Shown in pieces: positions 1,919 through 9,057 of a stretch of DNA of 64,000 nucleotides. The notes beneath the pieces were generated by a model that was given only the letters and a program-made list of their open reading frames with translations, was not told where the DNA came from and ran no database searches. Origin of the DNA: Escherichia coli. Lineage in GTDB: Bacteria; Pseudomonadota; Gammaproteobacteria; Enterobacterales; Enterobacteriaceae. Every line of letters starts with the position of its first letter. Positions within the stretch are counted from its first letter, which is position 1. The translations under genes and the position numbers were made by a program. The stretch is from assembly GCF_024502345.1 (NCBI RefSeq), contig NZ_JALDNN010000001.1, one strand, 5' to 3'.

Positions 1919-3634
1919 ATGAATTCGTTACAAATCTTGAGTTTTGTCGGTTTTACGCTGCTGGTGGCGGTGATCACCTGGTGGAAGGTCCGCAAAACAG
2001 ATACCGGATCGCAACAAGGCTATTTTCTTGCCGGACGTTCACTAAAAGCGCCGGTTATTGCCGCTTCGTTAATGCTAACCAACCTTTCCACGGAACAACT
2101 GGTCGGCCTTTCCGGGCAGGCCTACAAAAGCGGCATGTCGGTGATGGGCTGGGAAGTGACTTCAGCGGTGACGCTGATCTTCCTCGCGCTAATCTTTTTA
2201 CCGCGCTATCTGAAGCGCGGCATTGCCACCATCCCCGATTTTCTGGAGGAACGTTATGATAAAACGACGCGTATTATCATCGACTTCTGCTTCCTCATTG
2301 CCACCGGCGTCTGCTTTCTGCCGATTGTTCTCTACTCCGGCGCGTTGGCGCTCAACAGCCTGTTTCACGTCGGGGAATCGCTACAGATTTCTCACGGTGC
2401 GGCTATCTGGCTACTGGTAATTTTGCTTGGTCTGGCGGGAATTTTGTATGCGGTGATCGGCGGACTGCGCGCAATGGTAGTGGCGGACTCCATCAACGGT
2501 ATTGGGCTGGTTATCGGCGGGTTGATGGTGCCGGTATTTGGCCTGATCGCGATGGGCAAGGGCAGCTTTATGCAGGGCATTGAGCAACTCACCACCGTTC
2601 ACGCCGAGAAATTAAACTCAATCGGTGGCCCGACCGATCCCTTGCCGATTGGCGCGGCATTTACCGGTTTGATTCTGGTGAACACCTTTTACTGGTGTAC
2701 AAATCAGGGCATCGTGCAACGCACGCTGGCGTCAAAAAGCCTGGCGGAAGGGCAAAAGGGGGCGCTGTTAACGGCGGTGCTGAAAATGCTCGACCCGCTG
2801 GTACTGGTGCTGCCAGGGTTGATTGCGTTTCATCTGTATCAGGATTTACCGAAAGCCGACATGGCCTACCCGACGCTGGTCAATAACGTTCTGCCAGTGC
2901 CAATGGTGGGTTTCTTCGGCGCGGTGTTATTTGGTGCGGTGATCAGTACCTTCAACGGCTTTCTGAATAGCGCCAGTACGTTATTCAGTATGGGTATTTA
3001 CCGTCGCATCATTAACCAGAATGCCGAGCCGCAGCAGCTGGTCACCGTCGGGCGCAAATTTGGTTTCTTTATCGCTATCGTTTCGGTGCTGGTCGCGCCG
3101 TGGATCGCCAACGCGCCGCAGGGGCTGTATAGCTGGATGAAACAGCTCAACGGCATTTACAACGTGCCGCTGGTTACCATCATCATTATGGGCTTTTTCT
3201 TCCCGCGCATCCCGGCGCTGGCGGCAAAAGTGGCGATGGGGATTGGCATAATCAGCTACATCACCATCAACTATCTGGTGAAGTTCGACTTCCATTTCCT
3301 CTATGTGCTGGCCTGTACGTTCTGCATCAACGTGGTCGTGATGCTGGTGATCGGTTTTATCAAACCGCGCGCCACGCCGTTCACCTTCAAAGATGCGTTT
3401 GCGGTGGACATGAAACCGTGGAGAAACGTCAAGATCGCGTCAATTGGCATCCTGTTCGCGATGATTGGCGTCTATGCCGGGCTGGCTGAATTCGGCGGCT
3501 ACGGTACGCGCTGGTTAGCGATGATCAGTTATTTCATTGCCGCCGTAGTGATTGTCTACCTGATTTTTGACAGCTGGCGGCATCGTCACGACCCAGCCGT
3601 AACCTTTACTCCCGACGCGAAGGATAGCCTATGA
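1919..3634 (+). CDS. yidK: sodium:solute symporter (SSS) family transporter
   Basis: 571-aa polytopic membrane ORF with an SSS-like pattern; stop overlaps the start of the next gene. Confidence 0.85.
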   Translation: MNSLQILSFVGFTLLVAVITWWKVRKTDTGSQQGYFLAGRSLKAPVIAASLMLTNLSTEQLVGLSGQAYKSGMSVMGWEVTSAVTLIFLALIFLPRYLKRGIATIPDFLEERYDKTTRIIIDFCFLIATGVCFLPIVLYSGALALNSLFHVGESLQISHGAAIWLLVILLGLAGILYAVIGGLRAMVVADSINGIGLVIGGLMVPVFGLIAMGKGSFMQGIEQLTTVHAEKLNSIGGPTDPLPIGAAFTGLILVNTFYWCTNQGIVQRTLASKSLAEGQKGALLTAVLKMLDPLVLVLPGLIAFHLYQDLPKADMAYPTLVNNVLPVPMVGFFGAVLFGAVISTFNGFLNSASTLFSMGIYRRIINQNAEPQQLVTVGRKFGFFIAIVSVLVAPWIANAPQGLYSWMKQLNGIYNVPLVTIIIMGFFFPRIPALAAKVAMGIGIISYITINYLVKFDFHFLYVLACTFCINVVVMLVIGFIKPRATPFTFKDAFAVDMKPWRNVKIASIGILFAMIGVYAGLAEFGGYGTRWLAMISYFIAAVVIVYLIFDSWRHRHDPAVTFTPDAKDSL

Positions 3635-5124
3635 AACGCCCCAATTTTCTGTTCATCATGACCGATACCCAGGCCACCAATATGGTCGGTTGCTATAGCG
3701 GTAAACCGCTGAATACGCAAAATATTGATAGTCTGGCGGCGGAAGGTATTCGCTTTAATTCCGCCTACACCTGTTCACCGGTTTGTACGCCTGCACGCGC
3801 CGGACTATTTACCGGTATCTACGCTAACCAGTCCGGCCCGTGGACCAACAACGTCGCGCCAGGCAAAAACATCTCCACTATGGGGCGCTACTTTAAGGAT
3901 GCCGGCTATCACACCTGTTACATCGGCAAATGGCATCTCGACGGTCATGACTATTTCGGCACTGGCGAGTGTCCGCCGGAGTGGGACGCTGATTACTGGT
4001 TCGATGGGGCGAACTACCTTAGCGAACTGACGGAAAAAGAGATCAGCCTGTGGCGCAATGGCCTAAACAGCGTTGAGGATTTACAGGCGAACCATATCGA
4101 CGGAACCTTCACCTGGGCGCACCGCATCAGCAATCGGGCGGTAGATTTTCTGCAACAGCCCGCGCGCGCCGAGGAACCCTTCCTGATGGTGGTTTCGTAT
4201 GATGAGCCGCATCACCCGTTCACCTGTCCGGTGGAGTATTTAGAGAAATACGCTGATTTTTACTACGAGCTGGGCGAGAAAGCACAGGATGACCTGGCTA
4301 ACAAACCGGAACATCACCGCTTATGGGCGCAGGCGATGCCATCGCCAGTCGGTGATGGCGGGCTTTATCACCATCCGCTCTATTTTGCCTGCAATGACTT
4401 TGTTGATGACCAAATCGGACGGGTCATCAATGCCTTAACGCCAGAGCAACGTGAAAATACGTGGGTTATTTATACATCCGATCACGGCGAAATGATGGGC
4501 GCACATAAGCTGATCAGTAAAGGAGCGGCGATGTATGACGACATCACCCGCATTCCGCTGATCATCCGTTCGCCGCAAGGGGAGCGGCGACAGGTCGATA
4601 CGCCAGTCAGTCATATCGATTTACTGCCGACAATGATGGCGCTGGCAGATATTGAAAAACCAGAGATTCTGCCGGGGGAAAATATCCTTGCCGTGAAAGA
4701 GCCACGCGGCGTGATGGTGGAATTTAACCGCTACGAGATTGAGCATGACAGCTTTGGCGGTTTTATTCCGGTGCGTTGCTGGGTGACGGATGACTTTAAA
4801 CTGGTACTCAACCTCTTCACCAGTGATGAACTTTACGATCGCCGTAATGACCCAAATGAAATGCATAACCTGATCGATGATATCCGTTTTGCAGACGTTC
4901 GCAGCAAAATGCATGACGCCTTATTGGATTACATGGACAAAATTCGCGATCCGTTCCGCAGTTACCAATGGAGTCTGCGTCCGTGGCGTAAAGATGCACG
5001 GCCGCGCTGGATGGGGGCGTTTCGTCCACGCCCACAAGATGGCTATTCGCCAGTGGTACGCGACTATGACACCGGCCTACCGACGCAAGGAGTGAAGGTG
5101 GAGGAGAAAAAACAGAAATTCTGA
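3631..5124 (+). CDS. yidJ: sulfatase (Cys-type, CTPAR active-site motif)
   Basis: The translation contains the sulfatase signature C-T-P-A-R-A-G-L-F-T-G and metal-binding DHG residues; 497 aa. Confidence 0.85.
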   Translation: MKRPNFLFIMTDTQATNMVGCYSGKPLNTQNIDSLAAEGIRFNSAYTCSPVCTPARAGLFTGIYANQSGPWTNNVAPGKNISTMGRYFKDAGYHTCYIGKWHLDGHDYFGTGECPPEWDADYWFDGANYLSELTEKEISLWRNGLNSVEDLQANHIDGTFTWAHRISNRAVDFLQQPARAEEPFLMVVSYDEPHHPFTCPVEYLEKYADFYYELGEKAQDDLANKPEHHRLWAQAMPSPVGDGGLYHHPLYFACNDFVDDQIGRVINALTPEQRENTWVIYTSDHGEMMGAHKLISKGAAMYDDITRIPLIIRSPQGERRQVDTPVSHIDLLPTMMALADIEKPEILPGENILAVKEPRGVMVEFNRYEIEHDSFGGFIPVRCWVTDDFKLVLNLFTSDELYDRRNDPNEMHNLIDDIRFADVRSKMHDALLDYMDKIRDPFRSYQWSLRPWRKDARPRWMGAFRPRPQDGYSPVVRDYDTGLPTQGVKVEEKKQKF

Positions 5125-5170
5125 CGATAATGCCCGCTGATGATCACCCGGCGGGCATTATTCAGGCTGC

Positions 5171-5620
5171 TTAAACCAGCGAACCGCCGGTCAGGAAGGA
5201 AAAAATCAGGAATATCAGCAAAATGCTGCACACGATGCCGATACCAAAAAGCAAGGTATGAAAAGCCAGCGTCCCGCCGCCAAAAACCAGCGCGCCGCGA
5301 ATGCCCCAGCGATTTTCCTTACGCATACCGCCAATAAATGCGCAAAGTAGCGCAGCAATGGCCAGTGCGATACCGCTTTGATCGAGGATTTTATCGATAT
5401 CCATGTCCTCTTTTTTCTCCACAGTGGTAATTTTTTCGCCTTTTATTCCGGCGAGAAGACCTCTTTTAATTTCAGCCGTTTTGTCCGCCACGATGCTTTC
5501 AAGCGTTGGCGGTGGTGCGGAAAAAGGGCCGAATGAAAAGTGGATAATCCCCATCATTAAAGCGATGGCACCGAACAGCATGCCCAATGAACTGATTTTA
5601 TTTTGCGCTATGATACCCAT
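5171..5620 (-). CDS. yidI: inner membrane protein
   Basis: 149-aa hydrophobic ORF in the conserved position. Confidence 0.75.
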   Translation of the reverse strand: MGIIAQNKISSLGMLFGAIALMMGIIHFSFGPFSAPPPTLESIVADKTAEIKRGLLAGIKGEKITTVEKKEDMDIDKILDQSGIALAIAALLCAFIGGMRKENRWGIRGALVFGGGTLAFHTLLFGIGIVCSILLIFLIFSFLTGGSLV

Positions 5621-5728
5621 CTGACCTCCTTGTAGCGGATGGCAAAAGCATATCAGGAAACGGGCGGACGAAATTCTTAAAAAAAACCGCTAAAGATAGA
5701 GCGTTAGTGAAATTGCAAAGGAGCAACA

Positions 5729-6076
5729 ATGAAAATTTCCCGCCTTGGAGAAGCGCCCGATTACCGCTTCTCGCTGGCTAATGAGCGTACTTTTCTGGCG
5801 TGGATCCGTACCGCACTAGGATTTCTGGCGGCGGGGGTTGGGCTTGATCAACTTGCGCCAGATTTCGCCACGCCCGTCATTCGTGAACTGCTGGCGTTGT
5901 TGTTGTGTCTGTTTTCCGGCGGGTTAGCAATGTATGGCTACCTGCGCTGGTTACGCAATGAAAAAGCGATGCGTCTGAAAGAGGACCTGCCCTACACCAA
6001 CAGCTTATTAATCATTAGCTTAATATTGATGGTCGTGGCGGTGATCGTTATGGGACTGGTGTTGTATGCCGGATAG
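5729..6076 (+). CDS. yidH: DUF202-type small inner membrane protein
   Basis: 115-aa membrane ORF; overlaps the next gene by 11 bp. Confidence 0.75.
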   Translation: MKISRLGEAPDYRFSLANERTFLAWIRTALGFLAAGVGLDQLAPDFATPVIRELLALLLCLFSGGLAMYGYLRWLRNEKAMRLKEDLPYTNSLLIISLILMVVAVIVMGLVLYAG

Positions 6077-6428
6077 CCGCAAAGCCAGACGCATTGCCGA
6101 CCCAGGACTGCAGCCGGAGCGCACATCACTGGCGTGGTTTCGTACCATGCTGGGCTACGGCGCGTTGATGGCGTTGGCTATCAAACACAACTGGCACCAG
6201 GCGGGCATGTTATTCTGGATTTCGATTGGCATTCTCGCCATCGTGGCGCTGATCCTCTGGCACTACACCCGTAATCGCAATTTAATGGATGTCACGAATA
6301 GCGATTTTTCCCAATTTCACGTAGTCCGTGACAAATTTTTGATCTCCCTCGCGGTGTTATCTCTCGCAATACTGTTTGCTGTAACGCATATACATCAACT
6401 TATCGTATTTATTGAGAGAGTCGCATGA
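6066..6428 (+). CDS. yidG: small inner membrane protein
   Basis: 120-aa membrane ORF, apparently translationally coupled to yidH and yidF. Confidence 0.75.
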   Translation: MPDSRKARRIADPGLQPERTSLAWFRTMLGYGALMALAIKHNWHQAGMLFWISIGILAIVALILWHYTRNRNLMDVTNSDFSQFHVVRDKFLISLAVLSLAILFAVTHIHQLIVFIERVA

Positions 6429-6922
6429 CAGGAAGTCAGGTCATTGATGCTGAAGAGGACAGGCATAAACTGGTTGTAGAGTACAAGGATGCTCTGCAAC
6501 CTGCCGATTTTTATCACAATTTCAAACAGCGGGGCATCCGCTCCGTACAGCTCATTCCCTATCTTGAATTTGATGACCGGGGCGATCTGACGGCCGCTTC
6601 GGTGACAGCAGAGCTGTGGGGGAAATTTTTAATTGCCCTGTTCGAGTGTTGGGTGCGGGCAGATATCAGTCGTATCTCGATTGAGCTTTTTGACGCCACC
6701 TTACAAAAATGGTGTGGCAGCGAAAACCCGCAACCGCGCCGTGACTGCCAGGCGTGCGACTGGCATCGCCTGTGCCCGCACGCTCGGCAGGAGACGCCAG
6801 ACAGCGTGCTTTGTGCGGGCTATCAGGCGTTTTATTCTTACTCCGCACCGCATATGCGGGTGATGCGTGATCTGATAAAGCAGCATCGTTCTCCCATGGA
6901 GCTGATGACGATGCTGCGGTGA
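6425..6922 (+). CDS. yidF: Cys-rich C-terminal (SPASM-like) fragment of an anaerobic sulfatase-maturase-like protein
   Basis: 165-aa ORF with the cysteine cluster CQACDWHRLCP but no CxxxCxxC radical-SAM motif. Confidence 0.7.
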   Translation: MTGSQVIDAEEDRHKLVVEYKDALQPADFYHNFKQRGIRSVQLIPYLEFDDRGDLTAASVTAELWGKFLIALFECWVRADISRISIELFDATLQKWCGSENPQPRRDCQACDWHRLCPHARQETPDSVLCAGYQAFYSYSAPHMRVMRDLIKQHRSPMELMTMLR

Positions 6923-6929
6923 CGTGCGC

Positions 6930-8114
6930 TTAAACGGGCTGCCCCTGATGCGACATCCGCGTCGCCAGCGGCAGCCAGCACAGCACGATCAACAATCCCA
7001 TTAAGGTCATCAATAACCCCAGGCTACCCTGACCGGTTTGCGGCAACATCGCAGAGAGCGACGCCAGCACGCCGGAACCAATGTTTTGCAGACCGCCGAC
7101 CAGCGCGCCAGCCGTGCCCGCCAGGAAGGGGAACGGCTCCATCGCGCCGCTGGTCGCCAGCGGAAACAGCATCCCGGCACCGAAAAAGAACAGCGCGGCG
7201 GGAACGAGCAGCGTCCAGACATTCATCACGCCAAACCAGTCGGGGATCCACATCAGCAAGCCAGCCAGCAGGCAGCAGATAACCGACTGCCACATTAACG
7301 TGGAGAAGCGTTTATTGGGACGTCCGGCAAACCATGCGCCAAAAAACGCTGCCGGAATCGGCAGAATAAACAAAATACTGACCGTCATACTGCTCAGCCC
7401 TAACACCGCGCCCATCAGCACGCCGGAGCAGGCTTCAAAGGCGGCAATCCCGGCCAGACCGCCAATCAGCATCAGCAAATAACAGTTAAAACCGCTGTTA
7501 CCGAAAAGCGTTTTATAACTGGTAAGCAGGCGCGTGCGCGGTGCATCGACAGGACGCGTTTCCGGCATCCAGCGGGCCATACTGAAGGTCACACCAGCAC
7601 AAAGAACCAACAAAAAGAGATAACAGGCGCGCCAGTTCCACATCGTATCCAGCAGACCGCCGATTAGCGGTGCGAGCAACGGACTGACGAGAATCCCCAT
7701 GTTTAACAGGCTGTTAGCATGGCGCAACTGTGTCCGTTCATATAAATCTCGCGGCAAAGTACGCGCCATTACGCCGCCAACGCCGGTGCCCATCCCCTGC
7801 ATCGCGCTGGCGGCAATCAACACCGTCAAACTGGAGGTCGTGACCGCGACCAGCGTTGCCAGCATAAAAATGGACATTCCGACGAGGATCACCGGTCGGC
7901 GACCCACACGGTCGGAAATCGGGCCATAAAACAGCTGTGAGACACCGTAAGTCAGCAGATAAGCGCCCATTACGCTCTGCACCGCCCCTTCACGGACGTT
8001 GAGATCGCGCGCCATATCGGCAATAGCTGGAATATAAATGGTTTGCGCCATCTGACCGACGGCCACGAGTAATACCAACATCAATAACAAATTGACGTTT
8101 CTATGCCTTTTCAT
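6930..8114 (-). CDS. emrD: MFS multidrug efflux transporter
   Basis: 394-aa 12-TM MFS protein; start trimmed to MKRH. Confidence 0.9.
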   Translation of the reverse strand: MKRHRNVNLLLMLVLLVAVGQMAQTIYIPAIADMARDLNVREGAVQSVMGAYLLTYGVSQLFYGPISDRVGRRPVILVGMSIFMLATLVAVTTSSLTVLIAASAMQGMGTGVGGVMARTLPRDLYERTQLRHANSLLNMGILVSPLLAPLIGGLLDTMWNWRACYLFLLVLCAGVTFSMARWMPETRPVDAPRTRLLTSYKTLFGNSGFNCYLLMLIGGLAGIAAFEACSGVLMGAVLGLSSMTVSILFILPIPAAFFGAWFAGRPNKRFSTLMWQSVICCLLAGLLMWIPDWFGVMNVWTLLVPAALFFFGAGMLFPLATSGAMEPFPFLAGTAGALVGGLQNIGSGVLASLSAMLPQTGQGSLGLLMTLMGLLIVLCWLPLATRMSHQGQPV

Positions 8115-8304
8115 TATCACGGATGCTTTTATAAAAATAATTAGAATAAGTCACTACGCATTCCCATAAATGCGGGAGAGGAATCTATCACATTGATGAA
8201 TGCTAGCCAGATATGTGCCGGGAATGGCGAAAAGCAAAACGGCAGAATATGTAAACAAAAGCGGCAATAAATGTTGCCGGAAGGGATTACGTGCGAACTG
8301 TAAC

Positions 8305-8417
8305 CCTCTCCCTGAAAGGGCGAGGGGGAAACCACCGTTCCCTTTCAGAAAATGAGCTAAACATTGCACGGGACGGTCCCCTCGCCCCTTTGGGGAGAGG
8401 GCTAGGGTGAGGGGCAC
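8305..8417. repeat. REP/BIME-like palindromic repeat cluster
   Basis: CCCTCTCCC..GGGCGAGGGGG at 8305-8329 is the reverse complement of CCCCTCGCCC..GGGAGAGGG at 8378-8400. The spurious ORFs 8154..8468 and 8287..8475 are artefacts of this repeat. Confidence 0.6.
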
Positions 8418-8532
8418 AGGCAGCGCAGGTGCAAACATTCTGCTGGTAGAAGAAGCCCCCAACTCCAACCCGCACGCTAAATATAAAAGGGGAGCGGTTA
8501 CCCGCTCCCCTTTGGTGCGACTTGAATCTGAA

Positions 8533-8874: not shown

Positions 8875-8975
8875 TAATTTTTGGACAAAACGCAAACTGT
8901 GATCGATACTCAACTATGTACTAAATACGTCAAAATTCGTGCCGAAATTGCGCGTTCTGCGCGGAACAGGTATAC

Positions 8976-9057
8976 TTTCAGTGTTGACATAATACAGTGT
9001 GCTTTGCGGTTACCAGCCGCAGGCGGCTGACGAAACCTCGCTCCGGCGGGGTTTTTT
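8976..9057 (+). ncRNA. istR: IstR-1-like antitoxin sRNA (approximate ends)
   Basis: A TATACT -10 at 8962-8967 is followed by a ~75-nt segment ending in a hairpin and U-tract (9036-9057). The segment carries a 21/22-nt match (GTTGACATAAYACAGTGTGCT) to sequence inside the tisAB 5-prime UTR at 8733-8754, so the two transcripts would be complementary. Confidence 0.55.

Follow-up and report, generated by a model that had tools for sequence, protein, structure and literature searches.

Anaerobic sulfatase-maturating enzymes (anSMEs), a family that includes AtsB, AslB, YdeM, and the Clostridium perfringens enzyme anSMEcpe and is covered by the NCBIfam model TIGR03942, combine a radical S-adenosylmethionine (SAM) core with a SPASM domain. 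In anSMEcpe, auxiliary cluster I (Aux I) is bound by C255, C261, C276, and C330 and auxiliary cluster II (Aux II) by C317, C320, C326, and C348 (PMC5715301). Escherichia coli has two putative anSMEs, AslB and YdeM, and a third system is suspected (PMC8379841). The subject of this work is a further sulfatase locus of E. coli, yidK-yidJ/yidI/yidH-yidG-yidF, which lies in a 64,000-nucleotide stretch of contig NZ_JALDNN010000001.1 (the window) and in which the sulfatase gene yidJ is accompanied by yidF, encoding a 165-residue protein related to anSMEs. About 4.5 kb around yidJ-yidF is 100% identical in many E. coli chromosomes and is present in 5420 of 5426 complete genomes. The reading that we regard as probable is that YidF is the gutted ortholog of YidJ's own anSME, kept by selection, that YidJ is matured in trans, and that the remnant has a noncatalytic role, likely as a partner of YidG and YidH. 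The locus and its gene names were already known, and the missing radical-SAM motif is plain from an alignment. Almost nothing was found in the literature on yidF, yidG, yidH, and yidJ (one match to "YidF" was a typographical error for YdiF), and no description was found there of the orthology of YidF to full-length maturases, the anatomy of its deletions, their recurrence, or continued selection on the remainder.

YidF is a maturase without its catalytic core

The whole 165-residue YidF protein contains no CX3CX2C radical-SAM motif, and its relationship to anSMEs is confined to their C-terminal half, as the initial annotation of this DNA had proposed. Against TIGR03942 it scores 75.4 bits (equivalog cutoff, 349.45) and matches only profile positions 160 to 245 and a second C-terminal stretch; against solved structures it aligns to anSMEcpe residues 175 to 246 and 312 to 370, skipping 247 to 311. 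Compared with the full-length orthologs described below, YidF is colinear with residues 1 to 6, ~149 to 240, and ~295 to 370, and homology is secure for YidF residues 22 to 98 (full-length 164 to 240) and 113 to 165 (full-length 318 to 370). After its opening MTGSQV, the protein jumps to about residue 149 of the full-length sequence. The deleted parts comprise ~140 residues of the radical-SAM core (full-length ~7 to 148, holding CX3CX2C, GGE, and the N-terminal two-thirds of the partial TIM barrel), a segment of ~55 residues with three Aux I cysteines (the equivalents of C255, C261, and C276), and a further 4 residues holding the fourth Aux I ligand (the C330 equivalent). A simple 5' truncation is excluded, since the start codon and the first ~6 codons match those of full-length orthologs. 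The initial description of YidF as a C-terminal fragment was thus right about the C-terminal relationship and needs revision in its anatomy: the gene is not a simple 3' fragment, having kept the ancestral start and undergone internal in-frame deletions, and the SPASM domain has lost its Aux I part too.

The cysteines that YidF does have are C75, C97, C108, C111, C117, and C130. A HMMER alignment, with its CX2CX5C spacing, equates C108, C111, C117, and C130 with C317, C320, C326, and C348 of anSMEcpe, and in an alignment of 61 sequences C108, C111, and C130 are invariant and C117 is at least 90% conserved. By this correspondence, all four ligand positions of the Aux II [4Fe-4S] cluster are kept in E. 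coli YidF. An AlphaFold2 model built from the 61-sequence alignment has a mean predicted local distance difference test score (pLDDT) of 80, with high values at residues 10 to 99 and 130 to 165 and helices predicted at 130 to 152 and 158 to 164; its only significant Protein Data Bank (PDB) matches in Foldseek are eight anSMEcpe chains (4k36-4k39), at a template modeling score of 0.63.

A complete but unrelated protein family as the source of YidF, the finding that would have undone the initial proposal, is excluded: NCBIfam, a PDB sequence search, an exhaustive phmmer search, and Foldseek gave anSME relatives only, 1.84 billion representatives yielded only short YidF-like and full-length anSME-like proteins, and a Pfam search of YidF gave no match. 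We infer with high confidence from the missing segments that YidF can neither cleave SAM nor make formylglycine. In every E. coli genome sampled, the NCBI Prokaryotic Genome Annotation Pipeline (PGAP) names it "radical SAM protein," and the MG1655 record has "uncharacterized protein YidF"; the PGAP name, carried in thousands of genomes although the protein has no radical-SAM core, is corrected here.

Full-length maturases occupy the position of yidF in related genera

E. coli proteins were mapped onto 77 related loci taken from one-genome-per-species contigs. In the Enterobacteriaceae loci, yidH and yidG stand immediately upstream of the YidF homolog. Among Enterobacteriaceae loci, 29 have a yidF ortholog of 350 to 381 residues in this position, all but two of these with an intact CX3CX2C and GGE. 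The full-length proteins begin MTGCQVMAKPASSRCNLDCRYCFY, place CX3CX2C at C15, C19, and C22, and carry GGE and all eight auxiliary-cluster cysteines. They score 480 to 484 bits on TIGR03942 (against the cutoff of 349.45), and the one from locus L023, at 484 bits, aligns end to end with anSMEcpe (E = 9e-68). Full-length forms occur in Citrobacter (werkmanii, braakii, sedlakii, and amalonaticus), Kluyvera, Trabulsiella, Kosakonia, Atlantibacter, Dryocola, Pluralibacter, several Enterobacter, and Leclercia sp. 29361. The arrangement in Enterobacter cloacae is yidL-yidK-yidJ-yidH-yidG followed by a 367-residue Radical_SAM plus SPASM protein.

The junction with yidG ties the two forms together. In about half of the loci, those of the closest relatives of E. 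coli included, the full-length gene shares an ATGA with the end of yidG, and in the rest it begins no more than 11 nt downstream; E. cloacae, several Citrobacter, Kluyvera, Trabulsiella, and Atlantibacter have an anSME of 367 to 381 residues that overlaps the yidG stop and starts MTGCQVMAKPASSRCNLDCRYC. The MTG[CS][QH]V start and the ATGA overlap are common to short and full-length forms. Position after yidG, start codon, colinear alignment, and tree together indicate that YidF shares descent with bona fide anSMEs, and the gene order indicates an ancestral unit of symporter, sulfatase, two DUF202 proteins, and maturase (yidK-yidJ-yidH-yidG-yidF).

The core was lost more than once

Short forms of 162 to 192 residues are found in Escherichia, the Citrobacter freundii complex, Salmonella (enterica, arizonae, and diarizonae), Klebsiella, Raoultella, Superficieibacter, Silvania, Leclercia adecarboxylata, and Kluyvera sichuanensis. 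They are 42 to 55% identical to E. coli YidF, and their tail, PHMRVMRDLIKQHRSPMELM, is almost invariant. Each has lost the core and the Aux I segment (the C255, C261, and C276 equivalents, deleted in every short form) with the frame kept to the C terminus, except that one (locus L020) still has CX3CX2C; many keep the C330 equivalent.

A single origin of all short forms was tried and is unsupported, their monophyly reaching 6.5% bootstrap. In a neighbor-joining tree, the Leclercia and Silvania short forms group with the full-length protein of Leclercia sp. 29361 (90% bootstrap), and the two kinds have in common, along with the full-length proteins of L049 and E. cloacae, a 5-residue deletion (D-----NPES). 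The 192-residue form of C. amalonaticus ku-bf3, in which CX3CX2C is still present, is nearest to full-length C. amalonaticus, and the K. sichuanensis short form is nearest to full-length Kluyvera. Deletion boundaries vary by lineage, and a 249-residue Pluralibacter form has other boundaries again. These patterns point to at least two independent origins of short forms and probably more. Point lesions also occur: in the 360-residue protein of locus L039, a substitution and the deletion of one codon have abolished CX3CX2C, and Kosakonia copies at loci without yidKJ have GGD or DGE or have lost Aux I cysteines. Full-length copies without yidKJ at four loci from Kosakonia and a related soil metagenome-assembled genome (L036, L050, L058, and L060), together with L039, carry key-residue lesions and look like earlier stages of decay.

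The short form is under purifying selection

Within Escherichia, the ratio of nonsynonymous to synonymous substitution rates (dN/dS) of yidF is 0.18 overall and 0.05 to 0.07 in the tail, and the neighboring genes have 0.02 to 0.06 (yidH, 0.02; yidG, 0.06). Comparisons between short forms gave 0.11 to 0.33 in six lineages, each below 1 at a binomial P of ≤4e-4, with 0.03 to 0.09 in the tail of most short-form lineages at a dS like that of the rest of the gene; pairs of full-length genes gave 0.06 to 0.07. The gene is intact in length in 5420 of 5426 complete E. coli genomes. These substitution patterns show the short YidF to be kept by purifying selection at the protein level, most strongly in its tail.

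It might be objected that yidF is a functionless relic whose open frame and conserved tail have not yet decayed. The catalytic core is gone; the gene evolves faster than its neighbors (82 to 87% amino acid identity within Escherichia versus 94 to 99%); single assemblies of Escherichia albertii (L016) and L. adecarboxylata (L056) have broken frames; and the stages of erosion differ by lineage, with point lesions in Kosakonia and L039. A relic is nevertheless hard to reconcile with ratios below 1 in each of six independent short-form lineages, with a tail so constrained at a normal dS, with open frames of 162 to 192 residues that hold across genera at 42 to 55% identity despite several in-frame indels, and with the near universality of the intact-length gene in E. 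coli. The marks of a pseudogene, a disrupted frame and a dN/dS near 1, are not those of this gene, whose frame is intact in E. coli and most lineages, and we consider a relic improbable.

Constraint on the DNA or RNA rather than on the protein is a second objection, whether from the 3' end of emrD 7 nt away, from an antisense element, or from ribosome movement needed for the coupling with yidG. The stops of yidF and emrD lie 7 nt apart with no intergenic terminator, and a terminator-like hairpin sits inside yidF at 6666-6684. Within Escherichia, the tail dS is 0.45 to 0.46, similar to the 0.53 of the body of the gene, and because dS in the tail is not reduced, its conservation is at the amino acid level; a DNA-level cause was rejected on the same ground. 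The tail is also no less conserved in Citrobacter and Salmonella, whose loci have emrD 5 kb off or not at all, a scan with Rfam found no family inside the yidJ-yidF region, and the 3' 100 nt show neither reduced synonymous rates nor conserved RNA structure across genera. A nucleic acid constraint is highly improbable on this evidence.

YidJ is a Cys-type sulfatase, probably without a maturase of its own

YidJ was annotated initially as a Cys-type sulfatase, and the assignment stands: residues 4 to 341 match Pfam Sulfatase PF00884 (E = 2e-72; 244.5 bits against a cutoff of 25), SGSH_C matches at 9e-17, and C52-T-P-A-R56 fits the (C/S)-x-(P/A)-x-R sulfatase signature. The sequence CTPARAGLFTG is invariant in 26 of 26 YidJ orthologs examined, beside full-length and short yidF alike, and yidJ has a dN/dS of 0.05 within Escherichia. 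The sulfatase domain begins at residue 4, which leaves no space for a signal peptide; YidJ is presumably cytoplasmic, and yidK and yidJ look like an uptake-plus-cytoplasmic-desulfation pair.

The invariant Cys signature and the strong constraint on yidJ argue that YidJ still requires formylglycine. The initial annotation had questioned whether the locus could mature its sulfatase, and the analysis agrees that no working maturase can come from it. Since the core of YidF is deleted, YidJ would have to be matured in trans, and candidates for its Cys-to-formylglycine conversion are AslB, YdeM, or the suspected third E. coli system. The aslB gene is present in 5424 and ydeM in 5335 of the 5426 complete E. 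coli genomes; both encode full-length proteins with all motifs, and both lie beside sulfatase genes of their own. Individual E. coli genomes have aslB split by ISApl1 or ydeM split by IS1, and PGAP labels the halves of the IS1-split ydeM "radical SAM protein" and "SPASM domain-containing protein."

The link between maturase and sulfatase is visible across genomes. By a hand tally uncorrected for phylogeny, intact full-length yidF lies beside yidKJ in ~18 of 24 assessable loci and degenerate copies do so in ~9 of 34. The yidHG pair and short yidF occur without yidKJ in the C. freundii complex, Salmonella enterica, Klebsiella, Raoultella, Leclercia, and Silvania, and within E. coli yidJ is found at ≥80% of its length in 5113 complete genomes versus 5420 for yidF, ~300 complete genomes having yidF without yidJ. 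In E. coli strain N3 (L086), yidL, yidK, and most of yidJ have given way to an IS200/IS605 element that carries an insQ/TnpB gene (3314-5159), and yidI, yidH, yidG, and yidF are intact. Loss of the sulfatase, or a sufficiency of other maturases, appears to be followed by decay of the maturase core, while yidH-yidG-short yidF stays.

Short YidF might instead be a noncatalytic helper in YidJ maturation that binds the unfolded signature or passes electrons by way of the cluster left to it while AslB or YdeM performs the radical chemistry. In favor of this, the protein is derived from the cognate maturase and still has the Aux II ligands, which lie near the surface, and in Escherichia, S. arizonae, and Superficieibacter, where YidJ persists beside short YidF with its signature invariant, the two coexist with YidJ under strong constraint. 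Most short-form genomes, however, have lost yidK-yidJ and hold yidHG-yidF under constraint all the same, and what is retained includes neither the N-terminal barrel nor the Aux I region, both of which adjoin the radical-SAM active site and, in anSMEcpe, hold the substrate peptide. A helper role is, on balance, quite improbable.

A proposed role for the remnant

The history that we favor would run as follows. The yidF gene descends from an anSME that would once have served YidJ within the yidK-yidJ-yidH-yidG-yidF string. What the alignments show directly is the loss, by in-frame deletion, of CX3CX2C, the SAM-binding GGE, and all four Aux I ligands, and the survival of the start codon, the coupling to yidG, the C-terminal helices, ~77 residues of the barrel, and all four Aux II cysteines. 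Formylglycine for YidJ would be supplied in trans by AslB, YdeM, or the suspected third system, and short YidF would be a pseudoenzyme with a noncatalytic role unrelated to YidJ, most likely as a small cytoplasmic protein that works with YidG and YidH, the two DUF202 membrane proteins, and that may carry one [4Fe-4S] cluster. It would act in that role through its C-terminal helices and possibly through the single Aux II-type cluster.

YidH and YidG match PF02656 at 69.8 and 46 bits, respectively (cutoff, 23.4), and their description as overlapping, coupled membrane-protein genes agrees with an 11-nt overlap and with the DUF202 assignment of both. That YidF works with them is suggested, with less confidence, by the invariant adjacency, the ATGA coupling, and the co-retention of the three genes without the sulfatase. 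Two reports touch on D-amino acids: YidH came up in an overexpression screen for D-alanine exporters, unconfirmed by transport assay (PMC10299036), and a table entry records that YidF overexpression raises D-serine resistance (PMC12363166). Both leads are weak, and their agreement may be coincidence.

Several observations weigh against the favored history. The dN/dS values come from Nei-Gojobori counts on nonindependent pairs, with dS close to saturation in some of them; constraint on short yidF is relaxed 2- to 5-fold relative to full-length orthologs; and the broken frames in E. albertii and L. adecarboxylata would make the gene dispensable in some backgrounds. The Cys region (residues 100 to 129) is the fastest evolving part of the protein (dN/dS, 0.25) and has the lowest pLDDT (46 to 57), and the C. 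freundii-complex forms have Tyr in place of the C326 equivalent, so that an Aux II-type cluster is not guaranteed. Beyond Leclercia and Silvania, long branches blur the count of origins. Erwinia rhapontici has yidHG without yidF, which speaks against the partner idea, and the translation of YidF, its binding of a cluster, and its contact with YidG and YidH are presumed.

A different emphasis, which we consider unlikely, makes short YidF an "Aux II-only" mini-domain carved repeatedly from a radical-SAM maturase, serving as a single-cluster redox or adaptor subunit of YidG and YidH and unrelated to sulfatases; the D-amino acid overexpression reports would then hint at small-molecule tolerance or export. 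It is a more remote prospect that YidHGF forms part of the suspected extra formylglycine-forming system besides AslB and YdeM.

On the favored reading, the third sulfatase/maturase pair of E. coli is functionally uncoupled, and YidJ, as an orphan Cys-type sulfatase, would be a natural reporter for the system that makes formylglycine in trans. The locus is also a rare natural case of a radical-SAM enzyme losing its catalytic module by in-frame deletion at least two times with the remainder under selection; as that remainder is still selected after repeated loss of the core, an autonomous function of the Aux II/C-terminal module is implied. Strict gene order, together with the coupling of translation, ties the uncharacterized DUF202 proteins YidG and YidH to the lineage of this anSME.

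Organization of the locus

The gene positions given initially all match the annotation of a 100%-identical E. coli record, in which the order is yidL(-), yidK, yidJ, yidI(-), yidH, yidG, yidF, emrD(-), with yidL encoding a regulator of the AraC type (Table 1). At the junctions, yidH and yidG overlap by 11 nt, yidG and yidF by an ATGA (4 nt), and yidK and yidJ by an ATGA. The placement of yidH and yidG between yidJ and yidF is confirmed, with the addition of yidI, which lies there on the opposite strand and had been missed. With yidI antisense between yidJ and yidH, the sulfatase and yidHGF are separate transcription units in E. coli. A Pfam search with YidI gave no family, and yidI has a dN/dS of 0.15 within Escherichia. 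It is restricted to Escherichia, S. arizonae, and a few Citrobacter loci, and elsewhere the gap between yidJ and yidH is 10 to 120 nt, a distribution indicating that yidI is a later, lineage-specific insertion that split yidJ from yidH.

Table 1. Features of the yid locus (positions in the window)
Feature	Position	Strand	Basis or remark
yidK, solute:sodium symporter	1919..3634	+	Stop overlaps yidJ start (ATGA); upstream of yidJ wherever yidJ occurs
yidJ, Cys-type S1 sulfatase, 497 aa	3631..5124	+	Pfam PF00884 and SGSH_C
Codons of C52-T-P-A-R56, formylglycine signature of YidJ	3784..3798	+	
yidI, 149-aa predicted membrane protein	5171..5620	-	Opposite strand, between yidJ and yidH
yidH, DUF202 membrane protein	5729..6076	+	PF02656, 2.8e-19
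yidG, second DUF202 membrane protein	6066..6428	+	PF02656, 7e-12
yidF, 165 aa, in-frame deletion derivative of the locus's own anSME	6425..6922	+	Profile, alignment, AlphaFold2 model
Kept ancestral yidF start and first 6 codons (MTGSQV; full-length orthologs, MTGCQV)	6425..6442	+	
YidF residues 22-98, C-terminal radical-SAM barrel remnant (full-length 164-240; anSMEcpe ~175-246)	6488..6718	+	pLDDT 85-96
YidF Cys knot C108-x2-C111-x5-C117...C130, Aux II ligand equivalents	6746..6814	+	HMMER alignment to 4k36
YidF C-terminal tail C130-R165 (CAGYQAFYSYSAPHMRVMRDLIKQHRSPMELMTMLR), strongest constraint in the protein	6812..6919	+	Invariant columns, dN/dS
emrD, convergent neighbor	6930..8120 (annotated 6930-8114)	-	Stop 7 nt from yidF stop

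A promoter and terminator scan of 5000-7300 gave no promoter-like site and terminator-like matches at about the number expected by chance. The closeness of the yidF and emrD stops means that any terminators must sit inside the opposing coding regions, and besides the hairpin-plus-T site inside yidF on the plus strand there is one at 7032-7019 on the minus strand. In E. coli, Trabulsiella, and some Enterobacter, emrD directly abuts yidF. A block of ~5 kb with genes for a PALP-family enzyme, a GntP permease, and a LysR regulator lies downstream of yidF in Citrobacter, Salmonella, and E. cloacae loci (L007-L019, L082, and L083), and wherever the stretch fetched reaches emrD, as it does for Citrobacter and S. 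diarizonae, the block stands between yidF and emrD. In the window, homology to annotated records places ysdE and the tisB toxin gene just past emrD (8197-8484), and a match to Rfam RF01400 (144.8 bits) puts the istR antitoxin RNA at 8928-9057.

Comparison with known systems

With the anSMEs, YidF shares the strands and helices of the C-terminal barrel, the CX2CX5C...C arrangement of Aux II ligands, and the C-terminal helices. It differs in having 165 residues instead of ~370 and in being without CX3CX2C, GGE, the Aux I segment, and the C330 equivalent, and it is predicted to be unable to perform the reaction of the family. The aslA-aslB and ydeN-ydeM loci likewise place a sulfatase gene beside a radical-SAM maturase gene, and the ancestral yidJ...yidF arrangement is the third such pair. 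Unlike those pairs, the yid locus has two DUF202 genes that intervene and are coupled to the maturase, its sulfatase is without a signal peptide and is paired with an Na+/solute symporter, and its maturase is gutted in E. coli.

Twitch-domain radical-SAM enzymes resemble YidF in that their SPASM region is cut down to one auxiliary-cluster site (PMC5715301). The site is a different one, however: Twitch domains keep an Aux I-type site and are without CX2CX5CX3C, whereas YidF keeps Aux II-type ligands and has lost Aux I, and Twitch enzymes still have the radical-SAM core that YidF lacks. There is also a general likeness to pseudoenzymes, catalytically dead homologs kept for noncatalytic roles: as in YidF, catalytic residues have been lost and purifying selection continues. 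In YidF the loss came about by large in-frame deletions rather than by point substitutions and recurred in parallel lineages, and its noncatalytic role is putative.

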